Shown: positions 1 through 49,300 of the stretch, piece after piece
Numbering within the stretch: the stretch's first letter is position 1
How the letters are laid out: each line of letters starts with the position of its first letter
IMG/VR virus record: IMGVR_UViG_3300044630_001234
DNA length: 64,000 bases
Direction: 5' to 3' (one strand)
Source of the DNA: a virus
Notes under the pieces: generated by a model
Databases searched by the model: none
What the model was told of the DNA's origin: nothing
What the model saw: the letters and a program-made list of their open reading frames with translations, nothing else
Made by a program: the position numbers and the translations under genes

Positions 1-120
1 CATACATTCCTGCACAATCAACTCGGCGAACCGTTCCATAAACTTTGTCTGCTCTTCCCAAGAATCACTTTGAGTTGTTTTAGCAGCCTCTTCCCAAAGT
101 TGTTTAATTCGTTCGTTCAT
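1..120 (-). CDS. MNER-family small protein, partial (N-terminus in window, C-terminus beyond the left edge)
   Basis: Minus-strand ATG at ~118-120 opens MNERIKQLWEEAAKTTQSDSWEEQTKFMERFAELIVQEC.... Same N-terminal motif as the paralogs at 117..335 and 1000..1254. ATGA overlap with the stop of the upstream gene. Confidence 0.5.
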   Translation of the reverse strand, partial: MNERIKQLWEEAAKTTQSDSWEEQTKFMERFAELIVQECM

Positions 121-335
121 TCTTCAACTCCGAAATGTTCACGTATCTTTCTACCAATTGCACTTCTAGGATGTTTACAGTTTATATGTTCCTCACAGGT
201 ACAATCCTTCACATAATCATCCGCAATACCAACACATTCCTGAACAATTAACTTGGCGAACTTTTGTAATGTTGGGCTAGGTTCATAAGCAAAGCCAGCC
301 TGTTCAGCAAGTTGTCGAATTCGTTCGTTCATCAT
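117..335 (-). CDS. MNER-family small protein (72 aa)
   Basis: Track ORF. N-terminus MMNERIRQLAEQAG, core FAKLIVQEC, C-terminus HFGVEE. Start overlaps the stop of the upstream gene (GAATGATGAAC). Confidence 0.55.
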   Translation of the reverse strand: MMNERIRQLAEQAGFAYEPSPTLQKFAKLIVQECVGIADDYVKDCTCEEHINCKHPRSAIGRKIREHFGVEE

Positions 336-520
336 TCAACTCCGAAATGTTTCTTTGCGGCATTCCATCCATATTGAAATGCTTCCCATTCTAGTTCATC
401 GTAACCATAAGCACCTGTCATAACGCTGTGCGACCTTGAATCCGATGTGTCGTCAAGAAACTTGTCAAACATATCTGATTGTTCTTGGGTGTCCCAATCT
501 TCTTTCATTCGTTCGTTCAT
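332..520 (-). CDS. MNER-family small protein (63 aa; start moved to the internal MNERM)
   Basis: Track ORF 332..604. The paralogs all start MNER, and the MNERM ATG at 518-520 lies in an ATGA-type junction with the stop of 522..758. C-terminus KKHFGVE. Confidence 0.5.
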   Translation of the reverse strand: MNERMKEDWDTQEQSDMFDKFLDDTSDSRSHSVMTGAYGYDELEWEAFQYGWNAAKKHFGVE

Positions 521-521
521 G

Positions 522-758
522 TTATTTCCAGAATTTGTACCAAGGCTTTTTAGATACAGGTTTCTCTTCGAAGTAGAGTGCATCAGGACCACATTTTTCT
601 TCAATCATGCCGGCATACTGCAAGGGTTTACTGCGTGTTATGTGTGGAAATTTAGCATTAATGGAGCCATCAATTATAGAATATCCATTTTGGGGTGCAT
701 GGCACCAATGTGAACTGTACCCTTTTGAATAATACTTACAGTCTTTGCATAATTTCAT
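522..758 (-). CDS. small Cys-rich hypothetical protein (78 aa)
   Basis: Track ORF. CKDCKYY...HWCH, a likely zinc-ribbon-like N-terminus. Sits inside the coupled array. Confidence 0.45.
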   Translation of the reverse strand: MKLCKDCKYYSKGYSSHWCHAPQNGYSIIDGSINAKFPHITRSKPLQYAGMIEEKCGPDALYFEEKPVSKKPWYKFWK

Positions 759-1003
759 TCTTCAACTCCTAGATACAAAGGCTCTATGCCCAACTCGCCA
801 ATGTTTTCAGTATAGTAGTAAACCAATCCAATGTCGGGAACAACCCCGCCCCATGGTTCTTGTCCTGGGTATTGTGGCTCTAGATAACATGGAAACAATG
901 GCATGAGCTTTTTCTCCACACTTGATCCAGTCTCAGGAAATTCAAAGTTGCCTGGACCCATGATACATCTATATCGCTTGCTGATATATCCGTATGGTGT
1001 CAT
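755..1003 (-). CDS. small hypothetical protein (82 aa) with an LGVEE C-terminus
   Basis: Track ORF. The C-terminal ...LYLGVEE encodes GGAG immediately upstream of the next start, as in the MNER paralogs. Confidence 0.45.
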   Translation of the reverse strand: MTPYGYISKRYRCIMGPGNFEFPETGSSVEKKLMPLFPCYLEPQYPGQEPWGGVVPDIGLVYYYTENIGELGIEPLYLGVEE

Positions 1004-1254
1004 AGCTCAACTCCAAAATGTTTTTTAATTTTTACGGCAAGTTTATCATACAAAACCCATCGACCATGAAGATCTACAATGCTGGCACATTCCCGCACAA
1101 TCAACTCGGCGAATTTCTCATTGAACTGTGTATGCCAACCTATATGTCCATCTTCCCAAATCTTCCCAGGAGTTTTACTTCTAACAGGGCCAGTATAAAC
1201 TTCATTCACATAGTCACCAGCCTGTTCAGCAAGTTGTCGAATTCGTTCGTTCAT
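1000..1254 (-). CDS. MNER-family small protein (84 aa; start at MNERIRQ)
   Basis: Track ORF 1000..1278. The MNERIRQLAEQAG start at 1252-1254 overlaps the stop of 1251..1487 (ATGA). C-terminus KKHFGVEL. Confidence 0.55.
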   Translation of the reverse strand: MNERIRQLAEQAGDYVNEVYTGPVRSKTPGKIWEDGHIGWHTQFNEKFAELIVRECASIVDLHGRWVLYDKLAVKIKKHFGVEL

Positions 1255-1487
1255 AACTTTTCTCCGCAATGCGGACACAGTTTGGTATTGGCTTTACGCA
1301 TTTCTTTCAGTGTCTTGGTGAGTTTACGAGCATCGGTCAAGTGACTTTTGATTATCTTACGGTCTCGTTCGTGTTTGGCCTTGCCCAATTCAGCTTTGAG
1401 GTGCAGTTTCATTTTGGCCAGGCGGCCTTCAAAGATTTCAATAAAGCCTGTTATGCCCGGACTACTGCTTGTTGGAGTACCACTCAT
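1251..1487 (-). CDS. small basic protein with a C-terminal CPHCG motif (78 aa)
   Basis: Track ORF. Lys/Arg-rich and helical, with a C-terminal CxxC. Confidence 0.45.
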   Translation of the reverse strand: MSGTPTSSSPGITGFIEIFEGRLAKMKLHLKAELGKAKHERDRKIIKSHLTDARKLTKTLKEMRKANTKLCPHCGEKL

Positions 1488-1630
1488 TTTCTACCCCACA
1501 GGAACTTTAAAGACAGTCCGTCAACTAGCCCTTTCTTGAAAGGTGTATCAGGTGCCCATGCAATATAACCAAACACCACTCCATTCACATACATCAATAT
1601 CATGAGTAGTACTATTTCAAATTCACTCAT
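1484..1630 (-). CDS. small membrane protein (~48 aa), not in the ORF track
   Basis: Manual translation gives MSEFEIVLLMILMYVNGVVFGYIAWAPDTPFKKGLVDGLSLKFLWGRK. ATGA overlaps with both neighbours continue the translational coupling chain. Confidence 0.35.
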   Translation of the reverse strand: MSEFEIVLLMILMYVNGVVFGYIAWAPDTPFKKGLVDGLSLKFLWGRK

Positions 1631-1869
1631 TTTCGTAGACCTTTAATATCTTTATACTTGACACGAATAATAGTGTGCCATTCTAAGCCAATCTTCATAG
1701 GCAGATCCAGACTGATACTGACCATAGGACCTTCTATTTCATTACGCATATTATCTGTGTAGGCAGTGCCCACATATGGGATCTTCATATACACACCTTC
1801 GACCCTATCCCCAAACTTGTATTTGGGTTTAGGGCGATTGGCTTCAAAGTATTCTGCTAGACTAGGCAT
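1627..1869 (-). CDS. hypothetical protein (80 aa)
   Basis: Track ORF. Tightly packed with its neighbours. Confidence 0.45.
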   Translation of the reverse strand: MPSLAEYFEANRPKPKYKFGDRVEGVYMKIPYVGTAYTDNMRNEIEGPMVSISLDLPMKIGLEWHTIIRVKYKDIKGLRK

Positions 1870-1872
1870 AGT

Positions 1873-2733
1873 TCATACCTCAAAGTACAGACCAGGTTCA
1901 AACCCGTTACCATCTTCCCAGGGAGTATAACCTCTTGGGTTTGCAAGCACACGAGTATCACCAATCTTATAGTCAACAGGATCATGCATGTGACCATGCA
2001 CCCATACCTTGATGTTAGGATGATCAAGAATGAACTCGCTCAACTCACTAGCATATCCACCGTTAGTTGTGGTCTCGTGTTTGTACTTTTCGTTTACGCT
2101 GGCAAAGCTAGGAGCCATGTGTGTGATTACAACAACAGGTATGTCTCTTTTTTCTTCTAGCATAAACTTAAAATATTCTTTAGTTTTTCGATGTTCTGCA
2201 AAGGTGTGGTCGGGAGTTAATTTGTAGTATAGACTCTTTTCAGGATAGAAGTTTTGTACAACTTTGTAGTCGTTCATAAAATTCTTGATTGTATAAACAG
2301 TAATAGGATCACCTTTGTTAAGGTCAGTCCATAATGTAGCACCCAGGAACAGGACACCTTCATACTCAAAGCATTCTTTTTCAAGAAGCATAACGTTTTT
2401 AGGCAATATGGCTTTAAGATCGTTGTATGTTTTGTCAAAGCGGTGATGATAGTGCTCATGATTACCCATAACCATAAACACCTGTTTGTATTTGGCGCAT
2501 TCGCTGTAGAAGAAGTCATAGGCTTTGAATGCACCCGGAACACGATCTAACAATTTAGTCTTGTGAAAATCATTCTTTAGAGTACGGTATTCGCAAATAT
2601 CACCTGCCAGAATGAGTACATCACCACCTGGCAATTCCTGGTAGCCAAATTCTAAATGTAAATCACTGACTAAATGCACAATCATGGTATCTCCTAATGT
2701 ACTTATTATACATGATTTTACCTTATCTGTCAA
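1873..2733 (-). CDS. calcineurin-like metallophosphoesterase
   Basis: Motifs VSDLHLEF, LAGDICE, MGNHEHY, ITHMAP and VHGHMHDP, the canonical D-H / GD / GNH / H / GH metal ligands. Confidence 0.7.
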   Translation of the reverse strand: MTDKVKSCIISTLGDTMIVHLVSDLHLEFGYQELPGGDVLILAGDICEYRTLKNDFHKTKLLDRVPGAFKAYDFFYSECAKYKQVFMVMGNHEHYHHRFDKTYNDLKAILPKNVMLLEKECFEYEGVLFLGATLWTDLNKGDPITVYTIKNFMNDYKVVQNFYPEKSLYYKLTPDHTFAEHRKTKEYFKFMLEEKRDIPVVVITHMAPSFASVNEKYKHETTTNGGYASELSEFILDHPNIKVWVHGHMHDPVDYKIGDTRVLANPRGYTPWEDGNGFEPGLYFEV

Positions 2734-2753
2734 GAGGTAAAACTGTGAGTGTA

Positions 2754-3101
2754 TTAGATAATGACTGGCTTTTTAAGGGCTCTATCACTATAAAGTTTAT
2801 GACCGCGTTCGCGAATCAAGTCGGCTGTTTCTTGGGGATAGTCTTCCCACTGTTCTCGCCAAAACTTTTCATCCATCTCTTCTGCACAATCAACAGCATA
2901 AATTTCATAATGGCGTTGTGTATTAAATCGTGCTCGTAATAACATACTTCGAACGATACTATCCAACGGATTTCTTTCTGTAGGTTTATCGCTCAGCATG
3001 TTGATGAGATTCTGTTTGTCGTGATGCTCGTATTGAGTAATGGGCACGATTGCTTCAATACCCAAATGATCCCAACTGAAGATGAATGCATTTGTAGTCA
3101 T
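2754..3101 (-). CDS. hypothetical protein (115 aa)
   Basis: Track ORF. No recognisable motif. Confidence 0.45.
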   Translation of the reverse strand: MTTNAFIFSWDHLGIEAIVPITQYEHHDKQNLINMLSDKPTERNPLDSIVRSMLLRARFNTQRHYEIYAVDCAEEMDEKFWREQWEDYPQETADLIRERGHKLYSDRALKKPVII

Positions 3102-3174
3102 GTACTATTATACTGGTCAAACCAGTATCTAGTCAATTGGATTTTTTGCCGGTAAATAATACAAAGGACATATT

Positions 3175-3594
3175 ATGGATAAAATTAAAAAAGCAATTTG
3201 GATGACTTTGGGATTTATTTGTTTGGGCATTGCATACATTGGAGTAGTAACGCCTGGAATTCCCTGGTCAACTCCTACTGTAGGTGCTGCCTATTGTTTT
3301 GCTAAGAGCAGTAAAAGATGGCACGACTGGATTATGAATCATAAACTGTTTGGTCCATTTCTACGTAACTGGTCTGAGAAGCGAGTGTTTCCTGTAACGG
3401 GCAAATGGGCCATGGTTATTACTATGGACATTAGTTTAATTATCTTATGGTTTACTACGTATAATTGGAAACTAGTTGCAGGCGTAGGGGCCGGAATGGC
3501 ACTCTGTGCAATCTGGGCATTACGTTACCCTAGCAGTCCTGAAGAGTATGAAGAACGCAAAGCAGCCGGAAAGAAAATTGGTTGGTTTAAATAG
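3175..3594 (+). CDS. YbaN/DUF454-family inner-membrane protein
   Basis: Four predicted TM segments. The sequence pattern LGFICLGIAYIGVVTPGIP...RW is typical of DUF454. One of the few plus-strand genes. Confidence 0.55.
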   Translation: MDKIKKAIWMTLGFICLGIAYIGVVTPGIPWSTPTVGAAYCFAKSSKRWHDWIMNHKLFGPFLRNWSEKRVFPVTGKWAMVITMDISLIILWFTTYNWKLVAGVGAGMALCAIWALRYPSSPEEYEERKAAGKKIGWFK

Positions 3595-3600
3595 TCAAAA

Positions 3601-3626
3601 GAAAAGGGCCAATGGCCCTTTTCCTT
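3601..3626. terminator. bidirectional rho-independent terminator
   Basis: aaaagGGCCAttGGCCcttttcc: a perfect hairpin flanked by A-runs and T-runs between convergent genes. Confidence 0.6.
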
Positions 3627-3637
3627 TTTATTACTAA

Positions 3638-4438
3638 TTACTTGTTCATCATCAGTGCATTAAAGTTACTTGGAACAACAATGGTCTGCACACGACCCAT
3701 CTTGATACCTTCCGAGATGTTCAACATGGCCTGTGCCTGCATAAATGCAATTGAACTGCCGCTATTATTAGCCAATGCTGCCATACGACGACTTTCAGCT
3801 TCAGCAGTCTTAACTTCGACTTCCTTCTGCTTGAGTTCGTTCTTAGCTTTAACAAGTTCGTTAGCACTTGCTACAACTGAATCAGCTGGAACTACGTTAC
3901 GAATAAGAACTTGGCTGATCATGATAGAGCCATCCAACTTTTCTTCAGTAAGATTGCGAATGATCTCGTCCTTGATGAAGTTTTCCATGTCGGAGCGGGC
4001 ATCTGCCATATCCAATGCTTCATACTTGCGAGAGGCCTTGTAGATAGCATTACGAGCATTCTGCACAATGTAATTGTACATCACGAGTGTATCGCCATCC
4101 TTAGATTCAGCGTGGAAACTCTTGTTCTTGGTTGAGTACAATTCTGCAACACTTTGTGGGTTAATGTTGTAAACAACAACAGCATCTAACTCTTTCATGG
4201 TACTATTGTCTTTGGCTACGGGAGTCATATTCTCCAACACCACGTTCACATCCTTGATTGGGAATGTAAGAATATTACCAATAAGACTTTGATTAAACGA
4301 ACCCGGCAATAGTTCACCAGGTTGAACTTGCTTATCAAAGCCAACACGAACACCAACCTCACCTGTCTCAATACGAGTACAGCCTGTTGCCAAAACAACA
4401 GCAGAGGCAATAAGAGACAATTTTACAAAACGATTCAT
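3638..4438 (-). CDS. SPFH/band-7 (HflC/prohibitin-like) lipoprotein
   Basis: Start moved to MNRFVKLSLIASAVVLATGC (lipobox LATGC). Followed by an SPFH-like core and a C-terminal coiled coil (KAKNELKQKEVEVKTAEAE). Confidence 0.65.
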   Translation of the reverse strand: MNRFVKLSLIASAVVLATGCTRIETGEVGVRVGFDKQVQPGELLPGSFNQSLIGNILTFPIKDVNVVLENMTPVAKDNSTMKELDAVVVYNINPQSVAELYSTKNKSFHAESKDGDTLVMYNYIVQNARNAIYKASRKYEALDMADARSDMENFIKDEIIRNLTEEKLDGSIMISQVLIRNVVPADSVVASANELVKAKNELKQKEVEVKTAEAESRRMAALANNSGSSIAFMQAQAMLNISEGIKMGRVQTIVVPSNFNALMMNK

Positions 4439-4534
4439 TTTAAATAACTCCAGTAGAAAAAAGAAAGAAACAAACACTAAACCCTAGAACAAAATACAGT
4501 GGCCGTAGCAAGATGTCATTGATCATATAAGTCC

Positions 4535-4711
4535 TTAAAAAAGAAATACAATTCCAAACAATAGCAACATTGCTAGTGTAGCACTAACTATAGCATACAT
4601 TCCTGTCTTTGTCAAGAACGCTGCCTGAGCACCTGTCATCTTTTGAATTCTTTGAATGCCAAAATAAATTAGCACCGCAAGGAACAAAAAGAGTAAAATT
4701 ACTCCAACCAT
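4535..4711 (-). CDS. small two-TM membrane protein (~58 aa), not in the track
   Basis: MVGVILLFLFLAVLIYFGIQRIQKMTGAQAAFLTKTGMYAIVSATLAMLLLFGIVFLF: two hydrophobic helices. Confidence 0.35.
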   Translation of the reverse strand: MVGVILLFLFLAVLIYFGIQRIQKMTGAQAAFLTKTGMYAIVSATLAMLLLFGIVFLF

Positions 4712-4814
4712 ATATTATCCTTTAAGTTAAACAGACTAAACTTTCTATATTGTGTTTGCCTGTATGCAGTAATTATACATGAAAAAACCAGGCCTGTCGA
4801 CTGTTGATTTATCC

Positions 4815-4842
4815 AAAAAAATAGGAACCTAAGTTCCTATTG
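4815..4842 (-). terminator. rho-independent terminator after the GT2 gene
   Basis: On the minus strand: AATAGGAACttagGTTCCTATT followed by TTTTTTTGG. Confidence 0.55.
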
Positions 4843-4885
4843 CTGACTACTTATCACATTGTACGCCGTCAGCGGGCGAGTATTC

Positions 4886-5602
4886 TTAACTCCAATATCT
4901 AGATGAATCTAAACTATCCCAGTATGCTTTGTTGTTACGGTTAATAAAATTCTTAACTAGGTATTTGGCCATGCCAAGATAGCCCATCTTCTTAAATCTA
5001 CGACTGTCTTGTCCAAAGTGGTGTTTGACAATTCTAAACTTTCTTGGGCTGTACTTGCGTGACAAGAAGTAGTCTTCCGACGTTGAAAATTTCTCAGGAA
5101 AGCCGCCAAACTCTTCAAAACGGTCTCTACGTGTCAGCATAAATGCTCCGACAGCAAATGGTGAGAAATATTTCATAGCATGGTTTATGGTATTAAAAAT
5201 AATGAATCCCAGCTTGGCTCTAGGGTCTCGATCATAGCATTTGATTTTTAACCCAATAAGATCTAAATTTTTTGATTCAATTGCGTCAACAGCATCTTGA
5301 ATCACATTGTCTTTAAAGAAACGCACATCAGCATCGATGAACAGAATGTAGGGTGTAGTGACTAGGCGTGCTCCATTATTCTTAGCTAATGAAACGGGAC
5401 CCCCGTCAATGATTTCTACATTTAATTCACCTTTCATTATTTGAATAACTTCTCGTGTGTTATCAGTTGAGCAGTCAGCAATTATAATTCTAGTGTCACC
5501 TATGGATTGCTGACGTAAATGCATTAGCAGATGTGCTATGTAGTTTTCTTCATTCTTACAAGGTACCACGATGGTAATCTTATCACTTATTGTTTTTTGC
5601 AT
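4886..5602 (-). CDS. family-2 glycosyltransferase (GT-A fold)
   Basis: IVVPCKNEE...IIIADCSTDNT matches the GT2 signature (DxSxD-like ADCSTD). Followed by a FIDADV acceptor motif. Confidence 0.7.
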   Translation of the reverse strand: MQKTISDKITIVVPCKNEENYIAHLLMHLRQQSIGDTRIIIADCSTDNTREVIQIMKGELNVEIIDGGPVSLAKNNGARLVTTPYILFIDADVRFFKDNVIQDAVDAIESKNLDLIGLKIKCYDRDPRAKLGFIIFNTINHAMKYFSPFAVGAFMLTRRDRFEEFGGFPEKFSTSEDYFLSRKYSPRKFRIVKHHFGQDSRRFKKMGYLGMAKYLVKNFINRNNKAYWDSLDSSRYWS

Positions 5603-5623
5603 TGTCCTTCTACCTTAAAATTA

Positions 5624-6511
5624 TTAAACTTTAGTTGCCATTTCATTGACGCTAAGGTCATCTCGCAGCTTAGTTGATCTTTGAACGTTAGTTCTATTCT
5701 TCCCGGAACGTCCTGAGGATTGCTCACGTGAACTGCTATTAGTATCAATAACCACATCGTCATTCTCCTTGGTCCAAGTTACAATTTCCCAACGTCCATC
5801 ATGATGTTCTACAAGTGCTGTACATGATTCAACCCAGTCGCCATCATTCATATATGCTATACCATCTATCTCTTTAATCTCTGCGTGATGGATGTGTCCA
5901 CATATTACTCCATCGAATCCTCGTTTTTTACAGTAAGCCACTAGATTCTTTTCAAACTGAAATATAAAGTCCACTGCTTTCTTAACTCGTACTTTAAGAT
6001 ACTTGCTTAGACTCCAATAGCCAAATCCCATGCGATGCCTGATCCAGTTGAACTTGCTGTTAGCAGATAAAATAAAGTCGTAGGCCTTATCGCCAAGGAA
6101 TGCCAGCCACGGTGCTAGTCGAGTAATGCCGTCAAACAAGTCGCCGTGAGTGACTAGATAGTGTTTGGTGTCTACACCAATGTGTTCAAATTGATTAACC
6201 ACTTCCACATTACCAAAATTAATACCATATGGCATTAATGGACGGAGGAATTCATCGTGATTGCCTGCTACATAGATTACTCGTGTGCTACGTTTGGCAT
6301 GTCCCAGTATACGGCGAACCACGTTGGTATGGCTTTGTTTCCAACGCCATTTGTTTTGTTGTATGCGCCACACATCTAATATATCTCCAACGAGATAAAG
6401 TGTTTCGCATGTGTTGTGTTTGAGAAAGTTGTTTAACTTGTCTGCTTGACTATCCCTGGTCCCTAAGTGTACGTCAGAAATAAAGATAGAGCGATAAGTT
6501 TTCGGCGTCAT
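5624..6511 (-). CDS. LpxH-like (UDP-2,3-diacylglucosamine pyrophosphatase family) metallophosphoesterase
   Basis: SIFISDVHLG, LYLVGDILDVW, AGNHDEFL, THGDLFD and CGHIHH mirror the LpxH motif order. Confidence 0.6.
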   Translation of the reverse strand: MTPKTYRSIFISDVHLGTRDSQADKLNNFLKHNTCETLYLVGDILDVWRIQQNKWRWKQSHTNVVRRILGHAKRSTRVIYVAGNHDEFLRPLMPYGINFGNVEVVNQFEHIGVDTKHYLVTHGDLFDGITRLAPWLAFLGDKAYDFILSANSKFNWIRHRMGFGYWSLSKYLKVRVKKAVDFIFQFEKNLVAYCKKRGFDGVICGHIHHAEIKEIDGIAYMNDGDWVESCTALVEHHDGRWEIVTWTKENDDVVIDTNSSSREQSSGRSGKNRTNVQRSTKLRDDLSVNEMATKV

Positions 6512-7280: not shown

Positions 7281-8285
7281 TTATTTGATCTGAGACCAGA
7301 CACGCTCACGGATCTGTTTTGTCAAACTGTCCGGTAATGCTACATAGTCTAAGTCTGCGGCATCTTTCTTGCCATTCTTAAATGCCCAATCAAAGAACTT
7401 TAGCACTTCGTCACTGTTGGCCTTGTTGGCAGGGTTCTTGTACATGATAATGAAACTGGCAGAACTTACTGGCCAGGCATTAGGATTCTTTTGATCCACA
7501 ATACTCAATCCCATTCCAGGCACACTGAACCAATCAGCGCCATCTGCGGCTGCGGCAAATGTTAGGTCATCTGGTGACACATACTTGCCTGATCGGTTTT
7601 GTAGTTGTAGAAATACCATATTGTTTTTCTTAACATAGGCATACTCTACATAACCGATACTACCTTTAATTCTATTCACATTGGCAGCAACACCTTCATT
7701 GCCTTTGCCACCGACTGAATTTGGTGAAGGCCATTTAACTGCCGCACCACGACCTACTCGGCTCAACCACTCGGGGCTAACTGTAGCAAGATAGTCTGTC
7801 CAGTTGAATGTTGTACCACTACCATCAGCACGATGTACAATGGTGATGTTTTCGTTAGGCAGGTTCTTGCCTGGATTCAATGCTGTTAATTTAGGGTCAT
7901 TCCACTTAGAGATATTACCCATAAACACTTCAGCCATTACTGGGCCGGTGATACGTAGTTCGCCCGGTTTGAAGCCATCTAAGTTCACTACAGGAACTGT
8001 TCCGCCGATGATAGCAGGGAATTGAACTTGACCATTCTTGTCTAAGTTTTCTCCGCTGACAGGTGCGTCAGTTGCTCCAAAGTCCACAGTCTTGGCATTG
8101 ATTTGACGAATGCCGCCGGATGACCCGATGCTCTGATAGTTCATACCGGTGCCTGTGGCTTTTTTGTAGCCTTCAGCCCACTTGGCATAGATTGGGAATG
8201 GGAAGGTGGCACCTGCACCTGTGATGTCTGCGGCTTGTACTGATACTGCCACCGCGGCAAATAAAATAGCAAATAATTTTTTCAC
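7281..8285 (-). CDS. pstS: phosphate ABC transporter periplasmic phosphate-binding protein PstS
   Basis: GTG start after an AAGGAG site gives the signal peptide MKKLFAILFAAVAVSVQA. The mature protein DITGAGATFPFPIYAKWAEGYKKATG...SIGSSGGIRQI is a canonical PstS. Confidence 0.85.
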   Translation of the reverse strand: MKKLFAILFAAVAVSVQAADITGAGATFPFPIYAKWAEGYKKATGTGMNYQSIGSSGGIRQINAKTVDFGATDAPVSGENLDKNGQVQFPAIIGGTVPVVNLDGFKPGELRITGPVMAEVFMGNISKWNDPKLTALNPGKNLPNENITIVHRADGSGTTFNWTDYLATVSPEWLSRVGRGAAVKWPSPNSVGGKGNEGVAANVNRIKGSIGYVEYAYVKKNNMVFLQLQNRSGKYVSPDDLTFAAAADGADWFSVPGMGLSIVDQKNPNAWPVSSASFIIMYKNPANKANSDEVLKFFDWAFKNGKKDAADLDYVALPDSLTKQIRERVWSQIK

Positions 8286-8365
8286 TGTAAGTCTCCTTGT
8301 GTTAGTGATATTAATATTTAAACACAAAATGATTACAGTATGATTACAATTTTAAGAAATTTTAG

Positions 8366-18998: not shown

Positions 18999-19084
18999 AG
19001 AACCTCCTAATGTGTATGTCTATGTTATCAGTATATAACAAAACTGGTTTTATTGCAACCGATAATTTTACCAAAAGAAAACCC

Positions 19085-19445
19085 GCCGAAGCGGGTCTGG
19101 TTGTTTCTGTTACGAGGTATTTCCTACCCTAAGCGGTGTTTAGGCCGCTAAGGCAAAATGTGAGTCATTTGCAGTTACTTTTTTTGCTTCTTCGACCGGG
19201 TTACCCCAATCCTACGGGTTCTGCTTTCCCGAGCTGTCCACTCTGTTACTCTTTGCCCTGTCGAAACTATGCAGGCCCATTATAAAACACACTACGAACT
19301 CATCCTGCTGAATTTTCCGCTGTTCTCAACTAGATTCATCAGTTTTCGAGGCTGACCGCACCCTAGTATCTAATGTGTTTTATGGTGGACCTGGGGGGAT
19401 TCGCACCCCCGTCCAGAACACTTTTCTCTTTGCTTCATACAGCAA
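19085..19445 (-). ncRNA. ssrA: tmRNA (SsrA), circularly permuted two-piece type. The acceptor piece lies upstream of the coding piece. Tag reading frame GCA AAT GAC TCA CAT TTT GCC TTA GCG GCC TAA encodes (A)ANDSHFALAA.
   Basis: On the minus strand the T-arm and 3' acceptor GGACGGGGGTGCGAATCCCCCCAGGTCCACCA occupy ~19383-19414. The partner 5' acceptor strand GGGCCUG-CAUAG-UUUCGACAGGG (G3:U70 Ala determinant, UUCGAC motif) lies ~105 nt downstream at ~19278. The intervening segment is bracketed by the inverted repeat UAAAACACA / UGUGUUUUAU. The tag ORF at 19140-19172 is preceded by GCAAAAAAAGUAACU (compare E. coli GCAAAAAAUAGUC-GCA). A terminator hairpin GACCCGCuucgGCGGGUUUUCUUUUGG lies at ~19081-19105. 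Confidence 0.8.
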
Positions 19446-19455
19446 TAACTTATAT

Positions 19456-19782
19456 TTACACTCTAAAACTTTCTCCGCACCCGCATTTATCACGTTCATT
19501 AGGATTGCGAAATTCAAATCCTTCATTGAGTCCATTACGAGCCCAATCAACATTAAGTCCCTGTAAGTATGCAAGTGACTTTGCATCAACTAGTACTACA
19601 AAATCTGGTTGAGCAAAATTAGTAACTCCCTCTTCGGCAATGTAGCTGTCAACATATTCTAACGTATATGCAAGTCCGCTACATCCTGTAGTTTTTACAC
19701 CTAGCCGTATACCAATACCCTTGCCGCGTTTGGACAGGAGTTGTAGGATTTTCTTATTGGCTGTGTCGGTTACGGTAATCAT
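19456..19782 (-). CDS. iscA: Fe-S cluster insertion protein IscA/HesB family
   Basis: GIRLGVKTTGCSGLAYTLEY and the C-terminal NPNERDKCGCGESF give the three conserved Cys of A-type carriers. Confidence 0.8.
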   Translation of the reverse strand: MITVTDTANKKILQLLSKRGKGIGIRLGVKTTGCSGLAYTLEYVDSYIAEEGVTNFAQPDFVVLVDAKSLAYLQGLNVDWARNGLNEGFEFRNPNERDKCGCGESFRV

Positions 19783-40329: not shown

Positions 40330-43300
40330 TTAGAACCAATATGCTGATAGTACAGTTGCACCGTCTGTACCGGTTCCTGCTACAAAAAAGTTTTCTGAAC
40401 CTATTAAACTATTGGTAATAGATCTAGAACCTGCTGTAGCAGCACTTAAATTCTGGAAAGCAAATATCTTTAATTGAACAGCATCATTGGTTATAGTATC
40501 AACTGTTACTATTTGATCGACTCTATCAATACCGATGCTTTCTGGATAAGGCATTCTATTAGTATATACGTGTGATCCTTCTCTATTGTATGAGGATCCA
40601 CCAATTGTTGAACTCTTAACAGTTGCAGTTGCTACTGCAATTACAGCAGTAACTGCACCGGCGTTTGTAGCTGGAAATGCTCGACCGCTGCCCCAGATAA
40701 TACGCACGGCACCGACACCGCCCCAACCACCACCGTAGCTGGTACCAGATCCGCCGCCACCGCCACCAAATGCACCACCGTTAATGATACGTAGACCGCT
40801 TTGTCCCGAACCTTCGCCACCACGGCCTTGTTCGCCACCTGAACCACCGCCGCCGCCGAAATAACTAGAACTTCCAACACCATCCGCGCCTTTTCCAAAT
40901 ATGCCAACACCGCCGCCTGCAGGTACACCATATGTACTTGAATAATAACCAGATGCTGCACCAGCGCCTGATCCTGCTGGTGGATTGTAGGCCGTAAAAT
41001 AACCTCCGGCATTATCAGCACCCTGGCCGGCATATCCGCCTGCGCCAGCGCCGCCCCTATTCCAAGATCCTTCAAATGCTCCATTACCGCCACGTCCACC
41101 GCCATCTCCTAAGAAGCCGCCGCCGTAGCCGCCACCGAATGAGGTAGCACCAGGGCCGCCGCGTCCACCACCATAACCTGCTACTGTAGCAGTTGAGATA
41201 AAGTAACTGGTACCGCCTAGGTTCGTTGATAGGTTACTTGCGTTGCTAGTTGATTCACCACCTTGACCAACTACAACAGTATATGATACTCCGGGAGTAA
41301 CTGGAATGTTATTCTTCCAACCTAGGCCACCACCACCACCGCCACCAGAACTCCAAACATGGCCACCACCGCCTCCGCCGCCTACGGCTACAACACTTAC
41401 TGATGTAACTCCGCTTGGTGCTGTCCACGAATATGTACCTGTAGTAACATAAGTCGCATCACCCGCTGTTGGATAGGATCCAGTGCCACCTGTTGGAACC
41501 ACTCCGCTGATTACACCTAACTTAGGAGTTGATGTTCCTGTAGAATAGCAGGTAATTTGATTAATGCTGCCAATAGCCGACACAACAACAGTATTTCCAT
41601 CGCCGCCATTACCGCCTGATACACTAGAGGTTGTGATAGTTACTATTGATCCGGCAGTATAGTTACTAGTACCTTTAAGGCCAATAACTGTAAATGACCA
41701 AGATGCAGTTGTTATAGTCGATATAGAACTAATTGTAGGATCTAACTCAAGTTCACCAGTTGAGTAAATTGAATTAATCGCTCCTGGAGTAGGAGCTACG
41801 CTACCATATGCTAAACAGCTAATACTATAACTGCTGGTATTAACCACAGTAATATATACAATATTTCCTTGCCCAAGATTACCAACTCTAGCCTGTGCAG
41901 AAAGAATATCTTTAGTAGCAAATCCAACTGTTGAACTCAGTCCTGTTATATCAAATATCCAAGGACCCGAACCTATTACAGTTCCAATGGTACCTACTGC
42001 GCCTGAATCTACACCTATCGAGATCGATGCGCTAAATGTTGCTCTAGTAGTGGTTGTAATAATCTTTGCATTATCAGCAGTTCTAACATAATTGCCAAGG
42101 TGTCCAGCAGCGTTGACTGATACAGTAGCCGCTTGCTGGCCGCCGTACAAGAATCCTTGATATTCAGGAATAACCCATCTAGACTTACCATAGGCTACTG
42201 TAGTATCTCTGGTATAACTACCTACAGGTTCTGTTGCCTGATTACCAATTAGATTTCCTTCGGCGTATGGACTATTAGCTGTAATAGTAACTATCATCGA
42301 GTCATTACCATTATCACTAGGCAGAGCACTAAATCTTTGTCTAATAACCGGAGTTTCAGATGCATTTGCACCTGCAATTAATACAGATGCTGCTGGTCCT
42401 GATCTAGCACCGAAGCCGGTATAGATTGTACTAGTTGATATTGGTGCGTAATTAATAATTGGTAATGCAACTCCGGTTGAATAATCTGTCCCTAGCCATT
42501 CAGATTTCTTAATTCTAATATTACTAAAGCCGCCAAAGGTACTGTTTACAGAATAAAAACTACTATCGAAGTAAACTGTCTGACCTGTTCCTTTAAACAC
42601 TGAATAGAGTAACTTGCTACCGTTATAATGTTTAATGTAACCATCGGTGGTATAAACAATGTAAAACTTATTAGCTGGATTCCAAGATCCACCTTGGTCA
42701 CCTAAATTTGAACCGTTATGATGAATATTGAAATTGTTAGACTGGTACGGATATGCAGCCCAGTCTATGGTATCATAACTTGCATTAGCAGTTGGGTCAG
42801 CGTTCCAACCTATCATGGCATAGCTAGCACCGTTATCTGTGGCTGCTGCTTGCTTATAGAATTCCATGGTAACAGGTGCTGTAAATCCCGTTGAAATATA
42901 TGCTTGATTATCCCAGTTAATTGATCCTGAAGTTTTAAAAACAGTTACGTCAGTGGTTCCGTTATTTGTTACTGTTAAGTTCCCGGACGCAACTAACGTT
43001 ATTGTTTCGTAGGGAACAGTTACAGTCGAGAAGGACATTACTGCACCAGTTGTAGATACAGTTCCTATTCTACCAGAAGTTGCAGTAGCAGTTGATAAAC
43101 AAGTGATCTGTTCGCTGTTAAGCACCGACGTTACATACACTGTAGCTGTGCCTAGACTACCTACCATGTTAGTAGCAGTGATAATTGACCCATATATAAA
43201 TGCATTAGTGGATGTTAGGCCGGATATAGTAAATGTATATGGTGCTATTGTAGTTATAGGTGTAAATGGATTTATCACTGATACTACAGCAGAGGTCTGT

Positions 43301-46300
43301 GTTATCGTATTATTGTAAGACGAATTATCAATAAACGATGTACTTTGGCAAGTTAATAAAACTGTGTATGTACCTGTTGAAATAGGTGCAATATTTGTAC
43401 CACTGATTTGTGTTGTAGCCAAAGTAGATGTGGTAGGTGTAAAATTACCGGTGTAAACTGCCAGGCCTTTTACCAGTCTAAAATTAGATAGGTAGCCGTT
43501 AAAATATTCTGAATATCCTCTGGCGTTACCAATTAAAAATGGCTCTGTATTATCTGCACCCATTGAAATAGCCACTGAATACACCAATGAACCGTTTACA
43601 TATATGTTTAATGTAGAACCAGTGTAGACCCATGCACAGTGACTCCATACTCCTGCAGTTAATGTATAGCTTGAATTGTATTCAGTTCCATTATAAAAAC
43701 TGATAACACCTGTGCTGATTCTTAAAAAACCCTCATACGATGTAGTGCCAGAACTAGTAACACGTTTACAAAAGATAGCACGATATGCAGAGTAATCACC
43801 GTCTGGTCTAATCCAGCACTCTGCTGTCCATGCTAGGTTGTTTAAATTAAAATTAGTAGAGTGAGCAATCTGTAGGAAACTAGTTGATCCATTAAAACTG
43901 ACACTGTAGGAACTAGTATTAGTTAGAGTCGATACGCCAGTTACTGGTCCGATATAATTTCCGATGTCTGGACCGGCGGAATAAATTCCAACAATAGTAC
44001 CAGTGGTCGGTGCTAAGGTTCCATTTTGAGCTATACAGGTTATGGACGTACTACTATTAACCTCAGTTACTATTACAGTGTTACCACCGAAACTTCCACC
44101 TAATGGTGTTGATCGTACAATAGTACCTGTGGTAAATTGTGCAGTTGACCTTAGTTGTTGAATGGTCAGTGTCCAAGGATTTGTTCCGGATACTGAAGTA
44201 ATTAATCCTGGGGTGGTATCTGATGTTACTGATAAGATGTTGGTCAACGTGCCAACATTATAATCTCTAATAGTAGCACTAGATACTGAAACTACACTTA
44301 CAAACGCTGATTGCACTCCGAAGTATTTGTTTTCTAATGGAGTTGGTATTGTTACACCAGAAGATGACCCACTTGCAATTCCAGCTGTGTATATTTCTAA
44401 GATTTGAGCGGCTGTTAATTCACCGCTTATAACTTGTATTGCATCTAAGGCAGTCGGAGCTTCAGTACCTGCATACGGGTAACCGTTGCCTATGTAACTT
44501 GTTCCAGGATAACTTGAGTTAACAGCTATGTTAGTTAGTTCCTTAACTCCGTTAACGTATGCATCCACCTGATAATTTGATTTAACTACCCAAGCTAGGC
44601 AGAACCAATTATTTGTGTTTACTAAAGTTGTTCCAACGTTTTGTGTTGCATTGGCTACACAAATTTTTCCTGAGCTAATTCCCAGACCCCAGTATATGCT
44701 GTTTGCAGGATCACTGAAAATAGGCACACTAGGAGAATATGATCCGCCGCTGGCAGTTTGAGTTCCTTTGTACCATGCTACATAAGTCTTACTCCAATTA
44801 CTGGCCACTGTGGTTAATTCGTTGATTCTTAGATAATTACTGGCCATGTTCCAACCAGTAGCGTGTCCGGTATTTTGAACACCGCCTGTAGTAGGGAATG
44901 TTAAACTACCGGTTGTAGTCAATGAATAGGAGCCTGATATAGTAATTGCACCACCGTTGAATTGAATACCTAATAATTTCGTAGCACCAGGCGGAGTTAA
45001 AAGTTCATTTCCGAGTGAAACACCACTGTAACTAGAACCGGTATACGCCTGTACTGTACCGGCCCATACTAGACGTACAAATCCGTTACCACCGGAGCTG
45101 GCTAGGCCAGTTCCACCATCCCAAGAACCACCACCACCACCGCCAGGAAATCCACCTTCTCCACCCCGCGATCCTGCTGAAGATAATCCGTTGCCTGCAC
45201 CGCCGTTAGTGCTAGAAACTATAGGAGTATAGGTAGCAGATCCACCACCACCGCCACCTGTTACGTTATTTTGTCCAGCACCGCCAGCACCACCACTATA
45301 TCCACTATTAGAACCTCCTGTGCCTGCTGAGAAACTTGCGGCACCGCCACCACCAGCGCCAGCGCCCCCATTAAACCCAGATTGATATAAAGTACCGCTA
45401 GGACTGTATGAAGTACTACCGTTTCCGCCCGCACCTCCCAAACCACCTGCGCCGCCACCACCACCACCTCCGTCCCAACCAGCGCCGCCTGGGCCACCGG
45501 CGTAACCCCCAGTGGTTACCCCGCCTGGAGTATTAGCAAAACTAGGAGCAGCAGGTGCCGGAGCACCTGGATTAGTGCTGTAAGGCGTACCACCGATACC
45601 ACCGGGGACAGTCATAGTGAATGAGCCAAACGCAACTGAGCTCAATCCACCATCTGGTGCTTTTGTATTTTTTGTCGCAGTGGCTATTCCGCCTAATCCA
45701 ACAACTATGGTAAGAGTTTGACCCGGAGTCACTGATAGGTTATTGAAGAATCCAGCCGATCCACCAGAGCCACCACCGCCACCACCGTCACCGCTGTTTC
45801 CGTCATCACCTGCGCCACCTGCGCCAACTGCCATTACTGATAATGTAGTTGCATTTGAAGGAACAATGAATGTATATGTTCCAGGCGCAGTATAATTTTG
45901 ATCAGTTTCTACTGGCACTGGTGGCGTATATGTTCCGCCGGGGACACTGATAGAGTCGATCAATCCCGCAGTTGGAGCAAGGCTGCCGATTCCACCATAG
46001 GCTACAGCAATAATGCTAGTAGGGCTAGTAACTGTAGATACAGTTACCGTACTTCCTACGCCAAAACTTCCAAGTTTACCCGAACTGGTTGTTGCTGTTA
46101 TTATCGAAGTAGCTGTTAACGAAGATACAGTACTAGATGAAATATTGTAAATTCTAAAGATCCAAGAAGAACTTGTAATTGGAGTAACTCTGTAAACAAA
46201 GGTTCCTGTTGTGCTAGGATTAATTTCGGAATTGACTTGAGTTGATATACTAGTGCTAGTTGATGAAGTTGTATAAAATTTAGTAAATGCTAGAGTACCA

Positions 46301-49300
46301 GTGTTGAATAATCTAGCAGGCGAGTATCCGTAGGTTTCTGATGGTACATTGACTCTGAGAAAATACCCAGTTTGTAGTATACTCTTTCTTTCTAAGGTTA
46401 ATCTTCTGGTGTCATAGACCACGCTACCCGTAATGTTAGGAACGTGATTTTGCTGGAATAATTTTGGAGAATTTTTAATACTCGGAGATCTAAGATCATA
46501 AGACGGGCCGCCAACTGTTGAACTCTTAGTAAATGGAGTTACAACGGCTGCAACAGCACCAGTTATTTCAGTAACATTACTAGTTGGGAATGCTCTACCT
46601 GTACCCCAAATAATACGTACAGCTCCTTGGCCGCCCCACCCACCACCATAGCTGGTACCAGAGCCACCGCCACCGCCACCGTATTTTCCGCCATTGATTG
46701 TCTTAAAACCGCTTTGTCCCGAACCTTCGCCACCACGGCCTTGTTCGCCACCCGAACCACCAAATCCACCATAGAATTGTCCGCTAGCGCCACCACTCGA
46801 TCCTTGACCATATATACCTACACCGCCGCCTGCTGGTACGCCATATGTACTTGAATACCAGCCACCTGTACCGCCGCCGCCGCCTGCAGGAGCGGCATTA
46901 CCACTGCTACTACCACCATATGAGTCTGCGCCACGGCCTGTATATCCTCCAGCACCAGCTCCACCGTAATTCCATGATCCGTCAAAGGCACCATTACCAC
47001 CTCGTCCACCACCATCACCTTGATAGCCACCACCATAGCCACCACCAAACGAAGTAGCATTGGGGCCACCGCGCCCTCCGCCGTATCCTGCTACTGTAGC
47101 AGTTGAGATAAAGTAACTGGTACCACCTAGGTTTGTGCTATTGTTATTTGCATTAGCAGTCGATTCGCCACCTGATCCTACTACAACGGTATAGGTCTGA
47201 CCAGGTGTAACTGAGATGTTGTTTTTCCATCCCAAACCACCGCCACCACCGCCACCTGAACTCCAAGTGCTGCCGCCACCACCACCGCCACCTACTGCTA
47301 CAACACTCACTGATGTAACTCCTGCTGGAGCGACCCATGAATATGTACCTGTGGTAATATAAGTTGCATCGCCAGGCTGTGCCGGTAATGAACCTGTAAG
47401 CCCTGTTAGATACGGTCCAACTATTGTTCCTGCAATTGGAGTAGTTGTTCCCGTAACATAACAGATAATTTGTGTATTGTTAAGAATAGATTTAACTAGT
47501 ACTGTATTTCCTAGACCAAAACTACCTGTTACTGATGTAGCGGTAACTACAGCAGCCACAGATAGATAGCCAGTGCCCTTAATACCTATTACATTAAATT
47601 CCCACGATGTTGTTGATGTAGCTGTAACTGAAGTAATTGTAGTGTCAGGTATAATTTCGCCAGTGGCGTATATCGCATTAAGTATTCCAGTAGTAGGAGC
47701 TACAGATCCGCCAAATGCAGAAACTGTAATCGATGAAGTTCCAGTATTGGTAACATATACAACATTTCCTGTACCTAGTGTAGCAGATCTCTCAACTACA
47801 GAAATTACAGATTTAGAAGGTAATTCAAGACTTGACGACATTCCAGTAATTGTAAATGTCCAGGGTCCGACTAATGGTGTTCTAAACGTTGGTAATGATG
47901 TACCGGCTGACGCAGAAAATGTAAATGTTACTCCTGTAGCAGTGAAAGTGTGTATAGTATAAGTACCGGCTGTGGTTACAGTTCCGCCCTGACATCTCTG
48001 TGAGCCAGGATATCTAACAATAACAATACCACTGCCGCCAGAGCCTGATCCACTAGACCAACCACCGTTCGCAGCCCAGTAACTTCCACCACCACCGCCG
48101 CCCCCTGTGCCTGCAATAGCGTTAGGTGTTCCGCTACCTGTAGTAGTAGCATTAACTTCGTTGGTATATACGTTATAATTGTAGTAGGTTGTAGTACCAG
48201 CACCGCGTCCGCCGCCTGCAAATCCATCACCTGCTCGTTCACTACTGTTACCACCGCCACCGCCCCCGCCTGCATACCATCGCCATGTGCCAGAGATATC
48301 AAATGCTTTACCAGCGCCACCATTACCGCCTGGTGCTGAACCTGATCCATTTACACCTGCACCACCAGCTCCACCACCACCAGCTCCTGTCCATGTATAG
48401 CCAGTTGTACCACCAGCATTACCATAGGCGGCCGCGCCATTTACACTAGTTTGAGTAGCTGAACCACCACCGTTTTGATAAGCGGAACCTCCGCCTGAAC
48501 CACCGTTCATTTTGCCGCCGTCAAACCCCTGTCCAGTACTTCCGCCGCCACCGCCACCTTGTGCAATATAAGTTCCAAAAGAAGAGTTTCCGCCCTTGTT
48601 GCCGTTGGCGTTTGTTGAGTTAGCAATAGCAACACCACCTGCGCCTACTATAACATCATATGCACTAGATAATGTTACACCAGTAGCATAAAGAACTCCG
48701 CCGCCGCCACCGCCACCGTTACCGTTTGTGGTATTATTGTTACCACCCGATCCGCCACCCGCAACAACTAAAATATCGGCAACAATAGACTGTACAGGGG
48801 GAGGAGTATAAGTGCCACCTGTAGGTGTAATACCGAGAATTGATCCATTGGTGGGAGCAACAGTGGCTGTATTAGCCACTGCAATAATACTGGTACTATT
48901 AGTCACAGTATAAACATAGACTGTGCCGTCACCAAAACTTCCAAAACTGCTTGAATTTGTATTGGCAGAGATTATTGTGCCAAACGTTAGGCCAGATGTC
49001 TGTGTTGAGGATAGTTGCTCAATGGCAAATGCATAAGTTGCTGTGGTTATCAGTTCCACTCCGTAGATATTGGCATTAAGATATACTGGATTAGTAACAG
49101 TATTAATAATTCCAACTCCTGCACCATCACGATTAACAGGAATACTGATTGAATTAGTGCCTGTTGTGAATAACTTTGTCGAAGTTGAATATCCGTAGAC
49201 CGTCGACGGAGTTTGGATACGTTGATAATTAAACGAATTGTTTAATGTAATTATCGTAGCTGAAGTTAATAGGCGTGTAGTTGGATATGCAATGACCAGT

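Follow-up and report, generated by a model that had tools for sequence, protein, structure and literature searches.

Conserved in-frame blocks at the joints of a mosaic superfamily of small phage proteins

The gene array and its junctions

This work concerns an array of small genes at the left edge of a 64,000-nucleotide stretch of viral DNA (IMG/VR record IMGVR_UViG_3300044630_001234; the whole stretch is called the window below), and the protein superfamily to which three of them belong. All the genes lie on the minus strand, at the positions where a preliminary description, made from the sequence alone, had placed its open reading frames (ORFs; Table 1). Four paralogs had been counted. Three of these, A, C and D, share a head MNERI(R/K)QL, a core FA(E/K)LIV(R/Q)EC and a tail (K/E)HFGVE(L/E), and the first 38 nt of A and C are identical, with complete divergence thereafter. 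The fourth, gene B, is without the FAELIV core; only its MNER start and its KKHFGVE end resemble the paralogs, and it belongs to a family of its own, with 39 members. The order along the minus strand is the CPHC-ended gene, A, the 82-aa gene, the Cys-rich gene, B, C and D.

As had been noticed, a Shine-Dalgarno (SD) sequence lies inside the conserved C-terminus, and GGAG sits 7 nt before the ATG at the array junctions. The start codon overlaps the preceding stop as ATGA at A, C, D and the Cys-rich gene of the window, but not at gene B, for which an overlap had also been described; there the sequence reads TAAC ATG. The overlaps themselves are TTATGA before A, GAATGATGAAC between B and C, and GAAGAATGA both between C and D and between the 82-aa and the Cys-rich genes. 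Of the two unrelated genes said to be interleaved through the same junction, the Cys-rich gene indeed uses it (GAAGAATGA), whereas the CPHC-ended gene has a similar layout with a different sequence (GGAGAAAAGTTATGA). Within the 64 kb, ATGAACGAACGAAT occurs four times, always in the array, a number reached in 0 of 100 shuffles; GGAGTTGAR also has four copies, all in the array. The heptamer GAGTTGA is present in the core blocks (GCC GAG TTG ATT; 4-33, 234-262 and 1087-1116) and, in another frame, in tails (GGA GTT GAA; 123-131 and 335-343), which may be coincidental or may mark a common signal at the DNA level.

The array continues past the left edge of the window, as had been proposed. A contig of another sample (L166), 100% identical to the window over the 1,900 nt that they share, contains the whole of D, an 84-aa protein with the C-terminus IKEHFGVEE (L166 9448-9702). 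D is followed there by four more small unrelated genes and then by DnaK; since none of the four is of the MNER type, the phage has only four MNER genes in total. The array is therefore short, with three true paralogs and one junction-sharing gene. In relatives, the median number of copies is 2 per locus of about 9 kb, the maximum is 11, and the longest directly abutting run is 4.

Table 1. Array genes, junction blocks and neighbouring features of the 64-kb window
Feature	Position	Strand	Remarks
Paralog D, N-terminal 40 codons (MNERIKQLWEE...FAELIVQECM)	1..120	-	Translation; gene continues past window edge
C-to-D junction block CATTTCGGAGTTGAAGAATGAACGAACGAAT	107..137	-	Tail codons, SD GGAG, ATGA stop/start overlap, head codons
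Paralog C, 71 aa (72 aa with start at 335)	117..332	-	Head, short insert-1, core FAKLIVQEC, insert-2, tail EHFGVEE
B-to-C junction block CATTTCGGAGTTGAATGATGAACGAACGAAT	319..349	-	Repeat and motif searches
Gene B, 62 aa	332..520	-	DWDTxEQ...GYxExEWEAFQYGWNAAKKHFGVE; separate family
Cys-rich 78-aa gene, unrelated, interleaved	522..758	-	Entered via the shared junction; ends KFWK, without the tail
82-aa-gene-to-Cys-rich-gene junction CTAGGAGTTGAAGAATGAA	754..774	-	Same SD and overlap cassette linking two unrelated genes
82-aa gene, unrelated, interleaved	755..1003	-	Ends ...LYLGVEE; carries tail junction GGAGTTGAAGAATGA (repeat family D4)
A-to-82-aa-gene junction TTTTGGAGTTGAGCTATGAC	999..1019	-	
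Paralog A, 84 aa	1000..1254	-	Head, A-type insert-1 (DYVNEVYTGPVRSKTPGKIWEDGHIGWHTQFN, conserved), core FAELIVREC, variable insert-2, tail KKHFGVEL
Core nucleotide block of A AAATTCGCCGAGTTGATTGTGCGGGAATGT	1087..1116	-	Repeat family D2; equivalents 4-33 (D), 234-262 (C)
CPHC-ended 78-aa gene, unrelated	1251..1487	-	Ends CPHCGEKL; last codons give GGAG 8 nt before the ATG of A (GGAGAAAAGTTATGA)
Small gene	1630-1484	-	Between the 1869-1627 gene and the CPHC-ended gene
Small gene	1869-1627	-	After the metallophosphoesterase
Metallophosphoesterase	2685-1873	-	Heads the co-directional gene string containing the array
Sigma-70 consensus promoter, perfect 12/12, TTGACA-17-TATAAT	2705..2733	-	Upstream of the metallophosphoesterase gene; L166 6835-6863
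ClpX	14545-15777	-	

A common scaffold with two assorting inserts

Members of the superfamily, about 60-105 aa long, can be described by a scaffold with a head MNERIxELAxQAG, a core KFAELIV.EC and a tail IKxHFGVEE; insert-1 separates the head from the core, and insert-2 the core from the tail. AlphaFold2 models of A (predicted local distance difference test (pLDDT) score 88; helices at residues 3-19, 40-62 and 69-80) and of C (pLDDT 85; helices at 3-12, 18-41, 47-50 and 58-67) suggest that head, core and tail form a three-helix scaffold common to both. No informative structural relative of the AlphaFold models was found. The preliminary description had a single variable stretch of about 30 central residues; the variation is real, but it is divided between two inserts, one on each side of the core. 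In the homologs of A (alignment A2) the first 56 residues are almost invariant and are followed by a segment of 20-45 aa that varies in length and sequence. The C family (alignment A4) shows the reverse, with a conserved insert-2 and a hypervariable insert-1. The conserved insert-2 of paralog C carries a C-x-C-x2-H-x2-C-x-H cluster, in which C44, C46, H49 and H54 are invariant across alignment A4 and C52 nearly so.

Assortment of the inserts was assessed with 371 unique family proteins from about 160 loci, which resolved into 259 insert-1 types and 271 insert-2 types; the two inserts assort independently. The A-type insert-1 occurs with 26 insert-2 types, 66 insert-2 types each occur with at least two insert-1 types, and three complete 2x2 rectangles of module combinations were found. 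Each module type is conserved in many contigs, and within a type dN/dS was 0.02-0.32 (pooled values 0.10 and 0.15) at dS of 0.2-1.5. These low ratios indicate that the modules are conserved functional units and that the diversity is combinatorial. Thus, what had been called a diversifying cassette array is a mosaic whose parts are exchanged at conserved blocks, and not a site of mutational diversification or hypervariability; judging from the sequences, the diversity probably arises by recombining discrete modules rather than by mutation.

Conservation of the blocks at the DNA level

Codon use in the blocks was determined in loci picked by unrelated peptide motifs, independently of the junction. 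The head Asn is AAC in 86% of cases and the head Arg is CGA in 89%, against background frequencies of 39% and 12%. In the tail, Gly is GGA in 97% (background 23%), Val is GTT in 97% (37%) and Glu is GAA in 98% (70%), and the stop codon is TGA in 47 of 48 cases. The core, examined across 74 genes, shows Ala as GCC in 93%, Glu as GAG in 92% (background 30%), Leu as TTG in 92% and Ile as ATT in 99%. The fixed codons are often non-preferred ones. The conserved tracts span about 45 nt at the junction (-22 to +25) and about 30 nt at the core. Across 176 pairs of A-type genes, dS was lower in the blocks (0.42) than in the adjacent A-insert (0.88), whereas dN was 0.16 in the blocks and 0.11 in the insert.

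The tail as a coupling junction

Among 486 tail-bearing ORFs, the tail leads into ATGA in 421, into GTGA in 20 and into a one-base overlap in 30, which together make 471 (97%). Because GAA followed by TGA spells ATGA automatically, the downstream frame was also checked: an ORF of 40 aa or more starts at the ATG after a tail in 91% of cases, as compared with 34% for the other ATGAs of the same loci. The gene downstream of the tail is of the MNER type in 158 cases and of another type in 208. Since the tail contains both GGAG and the ATGA overlap, its sequence suggests that ribosomes ending one small gene could start the next, whatever its identity. No stable RNA structure was found at the junctions, with z-scores of -1.3 to +0.5 relative to shuffled sequences.

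The tail is also found on unrelated bodies: gene B, a 41-aa membrane peptide in phage locus L001 that ends AKKDFGVDE, and beta-rich and Zn-ribbon-like proteins. Gene B shares with the paralogs only the 12-nt head ATGAACGAACGA and the 21-nt tail. Most members of its family start at an internal Met, MK(K/E)DWDT, without the MNER prefix, which makes the ATGAACGAACGA in front of B look like a junction piece and not like an ancestral N-terminus. A homolog of B in L001 has another N-terminus and the same tail. In an A-type protein, P0101 (L176 5001-5384), HFGVEE is not followed by a stop and runs into a 40-aa Cys-rich, Zn-ribbon-like extension (SKGWVCPKCG...CPNGYH...CPMYG); the protein is apparently a fusion with the downstream gene.

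A similar arrangement occurs outside the family. Protein gp028 of Rheinheimera phage Barba1A (L173 2280-2525), an unrelated Cys-rich protein, ends EHLGGEE* on AGGAGGTGAAGAATGA and overlaps the next gene, which indicates that an SD-in-tail design arises independently elsewhere. An independent origin of the Barba type leaves the conserved Lys, His and Phe codons unexplained, however, and the core block as well.

Mosaic joints at the blocks

Matches of at least 90% identity among all fetched loci had 574 internal ends, 64% of which are no more than 20 nt away from a block; random positions would give 7.0% +/- 1.1%. When the control was limited to the +/-600 nt around a block, the values were 71% observed and 25% expected. 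The ends near blocks were distributed over cores (141), tail-head junctions (132) and heads (92). In addition, the same insert-2 is found at 90% nucleotide identity or more behind unrelated insert-1s, and vice versa. The loci are mosaic with joints at the blocks, and we infer the mechanism of exchange from this pattern.

Size and distribution of the superfamily

Database homologs number at least 2,479 for paralog A and 710 for paralog C. A mixed profile searched at E <= 0.001 against 1.84 billion proteins matched at least 4,878 representatives of 50%-identity clusters, nearly all of 70-105 aa. The named homologs are all "hypothetical", bar one with a wrong enzyme name: P0209, an 83-aa homolog of paralog C, was named "tRNA A37 threonylcarbamoyladenosine dehydratase" by JGI, a clear misannotation given its size and family. 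The exact 22-nt junction GGAGTTGAAGAATGAACGAACG is present in more than 120 IMG/VR contigs of 4-374 kb, and the source samples of the family are freshwater metagenomes. Family members lie in long same-strand runs of small abutting genes without a Pfam match. A cellular origin was considered and rejected: among 185,579 species genomes the 22-mer occurs only in three short contigs of freshwater metagenome-assembled genome bins, which are probably phage contamination of the bins.

Searches of Pfam, PHROGs and PADLOC with the eight small array proteins, and of PHROGs with five canonical relatives, returned nothing significant, and a sequence profile search of the PDB gave no match. Against 50,697 phage records, paralog A had no match by tblastn, and a canonical family member had none even at E <= 1; the 76-nt junction, searched by blastn, had only short and marginal matches, the best-looking of which was in Rheinheimera phage Barba. 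In BFVD only uncharacterised proteins of uncultured phages were matched. UniProt/BFVD entries such as A0A6J7WSW9, "Uncharacterized protein [uncultured Caudovirales phage]" (best E 9e-4, 34% identity), are the only neighbours found; they carry no annotation, family assignment or described function and probably belong to the same superfamily. None of PADLOC, Pfam, PHROGs, the PDB and BFVD gave a pointer to the function of the array proteins, and no toxin or immunity family was found among these proteins with Pfam and PADLOC. Literature searches with motif strings and descriptive terms found no paper on the family. This large superfamily thus has neither a family name nor a solved structure, and in the databases searched it is unannotated and found in uncultured freshwater phages, with no member from a cultured phage.

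Possible roles of the blocks

We consider it likely that the proteins form a three-helix superfamily with two swappable modules, in which the DNA of the blocks serves both coupling and exchange. In coupling, TTC-GGA-GTT-GAA-GAA-TGA would place GGAG 7 nt before a stop-overlapping ATG. In exchange, the conserved tracts at the junction (about 45 nt) and at the core (about 30 nt) would act as homology patches for recombination among paralogs and co-infecting phages, with whole genes being swapped at the junctions and half-genes at the core. The outcome would be a combinatorial library of module pairs. Unrelated genes that land beside a junction would acquire the tail, and sometimes the 12-nt head, as gene B and the 82-aa gene may have done. 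The proteins themselves may have accessory roles, with different modules binding different targets of host or phage origin.

Several considerations weigh against this reading. The binding role just mentioned is a guess, held with low confidence. The expression and coupling of the array genes are read from sequence. The blocks are also structural helices, so that constraint at the protein level accounts for part of their conservation, and the contrast in synonymous heterozygosity within A is moderate (0.18 in the blocks and 0.32 in the insert, one-sided p = 0.035). The module clusters were set at 60% identity or more, which pushes dN/dS downward, and loci L046-L165 were chosen with the 22-mer itself, so that counts including them are biased to tandem tail-to-head junctions. 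The enrichment of breakpoints, finally, is partly expected, since an alignment will cross a universal block and end once the inserts diverge; what it demonstrates is mosaicism, and not the mechanism or rate of exchange.

Ordinary divergence of a protein family, with the blocks kept as helices, their codons set by ancestry or local preference, the inserts being fast-evolving loops and the DNA having no role of its own, would explain why the blocks coincide with the three predicted helices, why their amino-acid substitutions are conservative and why some synonymous variation is present in them. It is hard to reconcile with the frequent fixation of non-preferred codons (CGA, GAG and GGA have backgrounds of 12%, 30% and 23%), and with a block dS that is half that of a neighbouring insert more strongly conserved as protein, while the block dN is higher. 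Nor would divergence alone place the same insert-2, nearly identical in nucleotides, with unrelated insert-1s, and the reverse, or put an identical 21-nt tail on unrelated proteins, and we find this explanation rather unlikely. It also seems unlikely that the blocks are translation signals alone, that is, a convergent tail of SD, spacer and ATGA and a head (AAC-GAA-CGA) acting as an A-rich unstructured initiation region, with no special recombination. The optimal spacing of GGAG, the nearly constant TGA stop, the independent design of the Barba protein and the junction RNAs without stable structure are all in line with such signals. A codon-fixed internal core block of about 30 nt, far from any start, is left unexplained, as are the conserved His, Phe and Lys codons that precede GGAG in unrelated proteins and the 141 breakpoints clustered at the core.

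That HFGVEE could be a peptide signal (a degron, adaptor or sorting tag) read by phage ClpX, ClpS, DnaK or transfer-messenger RNA (tmRNA) is suggested by the presence of ClpX in the window, of DnaK, HSP20 and ClpS directly downstream of the array and of a tmRNA, as well as by the unrelated bodies that bear the tail. This co-occurrence is, however, found in one genome only, and the family is spread over 4-374-kb contigs of many phage types with no evidence of Clp genes there. A peptide signal would not need the synonymous fixation of GGA, GTT, GAA and TGA, and in the structure models the tail is where a helix of the scaffold ends; we judge a signal of this kind very improbable. Targeted hypermutation of the type driven by diversity-generating retroelements (DGRs), or positive selection on point mutations, could be invoked for the very many insert types, and the window also encodes, away from the array, a protein with an Mtd_N domain. 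Yet the dN/dS within module types is low, and the inserts are unalignable between types and of unequal length, rather than differing at particular positions. No DGR template/variable repeat pair was found in 1-3200, and no reverse transcriptase was seen among the annotated ORFs, the whole window not having been exhaustively scanned, so that we give this explanation hardly any credence. Finally, the preliminary description had asked whether the blocks could be non-coding repeats and the ORFs spurious. Apart from the small size of the ORFs, nothing speaks for this: the frames are intact in thousands of relatives and under purifying selection, the structure models are confident and SD-bearing starts are found at every junction. 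We see practically no chance that the blocks are non-coding repeats and the ORFs spurious.

A more far-reaching version of the two-module reading is that the codon-fixed blocks form a dedicated "grammar" for assembling, exchanging and co-expressing a combinatorial repertoire of small binders in freshwater phages, a population-level library of host-factor or anti-defence inhibitors in which the exchange function itself was selected. For the anti-defence or host-takeover role that the preliminary description had brought up, the points available are only circumstantial: the genes are small and accessory, and their hyperplastic region follows a sigma-70 consensus promoter. We regard the "grammar" as doubtful. 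If it were true, the same DNA would be scaffold, ribosome-binding junction and recombination site at once, and at least several hundred types each of insert-1 and insert-2 would be carried on one three-helix scaffold.

Relation to known modular systems

In T4-type phages, promoter early stem-loop (PeSL) cassettes are reported to combine an intergenic sigma-70-like promoter with a terminator stem-loop between small non-essential genes of hyperplastic regions (PMC2839356, PMC4122927). PeSLs and the blocks described here are alike in that a short repeated DNA motif would be both an expression signal and a homology patch for modular shuffling, and in that the mosaic breakpoints of related genomes coincide with the motif (PMC2839356, PMC4122927). 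PeSLs are intergenic, whereas the blocks lie in frame inside coding sequences of genes that overlap by 4 nt; PeSLs carry a promoter and a terminator, whereas the blocks carry a ribosome-binding site and a stop/start overlap with no stem-loop. The blocks also include, unlike PeSLs, an internal block that divides the gene into two exchangeable halves. By analogy, PeSL-mediated shuffling would be the closest known relative in mode of action: the blocks appear to work like PeSLs but lack the features by which a PeSL is defined, and we do not call them PeSLs.

Other systems share single traits with the array. Translational coupling through an overlapping ATGA, with the SD inside the upstream gene, is a general feature of bacterial and phage operons, and its anatomy is the same as here, with GGAG 7 nt upstream of a TGA-overlapping ATG. 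An ordinary coupled pair, however, has its own sequence at each junction, whereas here thousands of genes from many phage lineages have one junction sequence in common, even at synonymous sites, and it makes unrelated proteins end in the same peptide. In polymorphic toxin loci with orphan cassettes, an in-frame motif bounds the exchanged modules (CdiA-CT after the VENN motif; the core/tip boundary of Rhs). These loci resemble the array in their conserved in-frame boundary motif, in module exchange by homologous recombination and in their many combinations; but they encode large secreted bacterial toxins with paired immunity genes, and the array proteins are of 60-105 aa, have two boundaries and show no toxin/immunity signature or delivery domain. 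Lambdoid phages have conserved "linker" sequences at module boundaries (modular theory of phage evolution), and in both cases short shared boundary sequences coincide with mosaic joints of unrelated segments. The lambdoid joints are sporadic and mostly at gene boundaries, whereas here the joints follow a fixed grammar of three blocks within a single protein family.

Much of the "dark matter" of phages consists of small genes without a known function, and this superfamily would extend modular shuffling from intergenic cassettes such as PeSLs into coding sequence. The design is unusually clean, with two modules that would be shuffled around three in-frame blocks, one of which is also a reusable ribosome-binding junction. 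It is a concrete example of synonymous sites that are constrained at the protein and the DNA level at once. In practical terms, hyperplastic regions in metagenomic phage contigs could be located simply by searching for the 22-nt junction and for the motifs of head, core and tail, and a scaffold with hundreds of natural module pairs is a ready set for binding tests of accessory proteins.

Genome setting

The string of co-directional genes that contains the array is preceded by the perfect sigma-70 promoter listed in Table 1 (window coordinates equal 9568 minus the L166 coordinate). This is the only strong promoter-like site (12/12), and it lies upstream of the whole string; none was found at the junctions, and no same-strand terminator-like sites were found within the array. 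A second promoter match (11/12, at about 3107-3136) lies upstream of a 115-aa gene. Beyond the left edge of the window, L166 10838-14782 encodes DnaK/HSP70, HSP20 and ClpS, then heme oxygenase and ferredoxin-dependent bilin reductase; CsgF/CsgG curli-secretion homologs also belong to this unusual set of proteostasis and pigment genes, as does ClpX in the window. Heme oxygenase and bilin reductase are auxiliary genes of the cyanophage type, and the phage is possibly a cyanophage.

A ribonucleotide reductase, ClpX, PstS, a tmRNA and ORFs of up to 3,051 aa are encoded within the window, content that marks a large uncultured phage. It is an uncultured freshwater jumbo phage whose array sits in a "hyperplastic" small-gene region; a nucleotide search of 1-6000 found no near relative among the 50,697 phage records. 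An Rfam search found no known RNA in the array and matched only the distant tmRNA. The latter is a permuted, two-piece tmRNA on the minus strand (19140-19444; RF04321, 111 bits; 19049-19475 according to ARAGORN) with the tag ANDSHFALAA. Such permuted forms are characteristic of a few bacterial lineages, some cyanobacteria and alphaproteobacteria among them, and may thus hint at the host.

The remaining observations concern other minus-strand genes of the window. Two giant ORFs, of 3,051 aa (40330-49485) and 1,975 aa (57966-63893), flank a 1,014-aa protein with collagen repeats (51405-54449) and a 1,050-aa protein (54787-57939) that combines an Mtd_N (major tropism determinant N-terminal) domain with a weak phycobilisome-like match. 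These large ORFs, at 40330-63893, are probably fibre or adhesin proteins, and, given the Mtd_N match, one may ask whether another part of the genome contains a DGR. Closer to the array lie genes for an SPFH/Band-7 protein (3638-4477), a second metallophosphoesterase (5624-6511), a PstS-like phosphate-binding protein (7281-8327) and a DUF7788/DUF2828 protein (8402-9799), all of which are auxiliary genes typical of aquatic phages.

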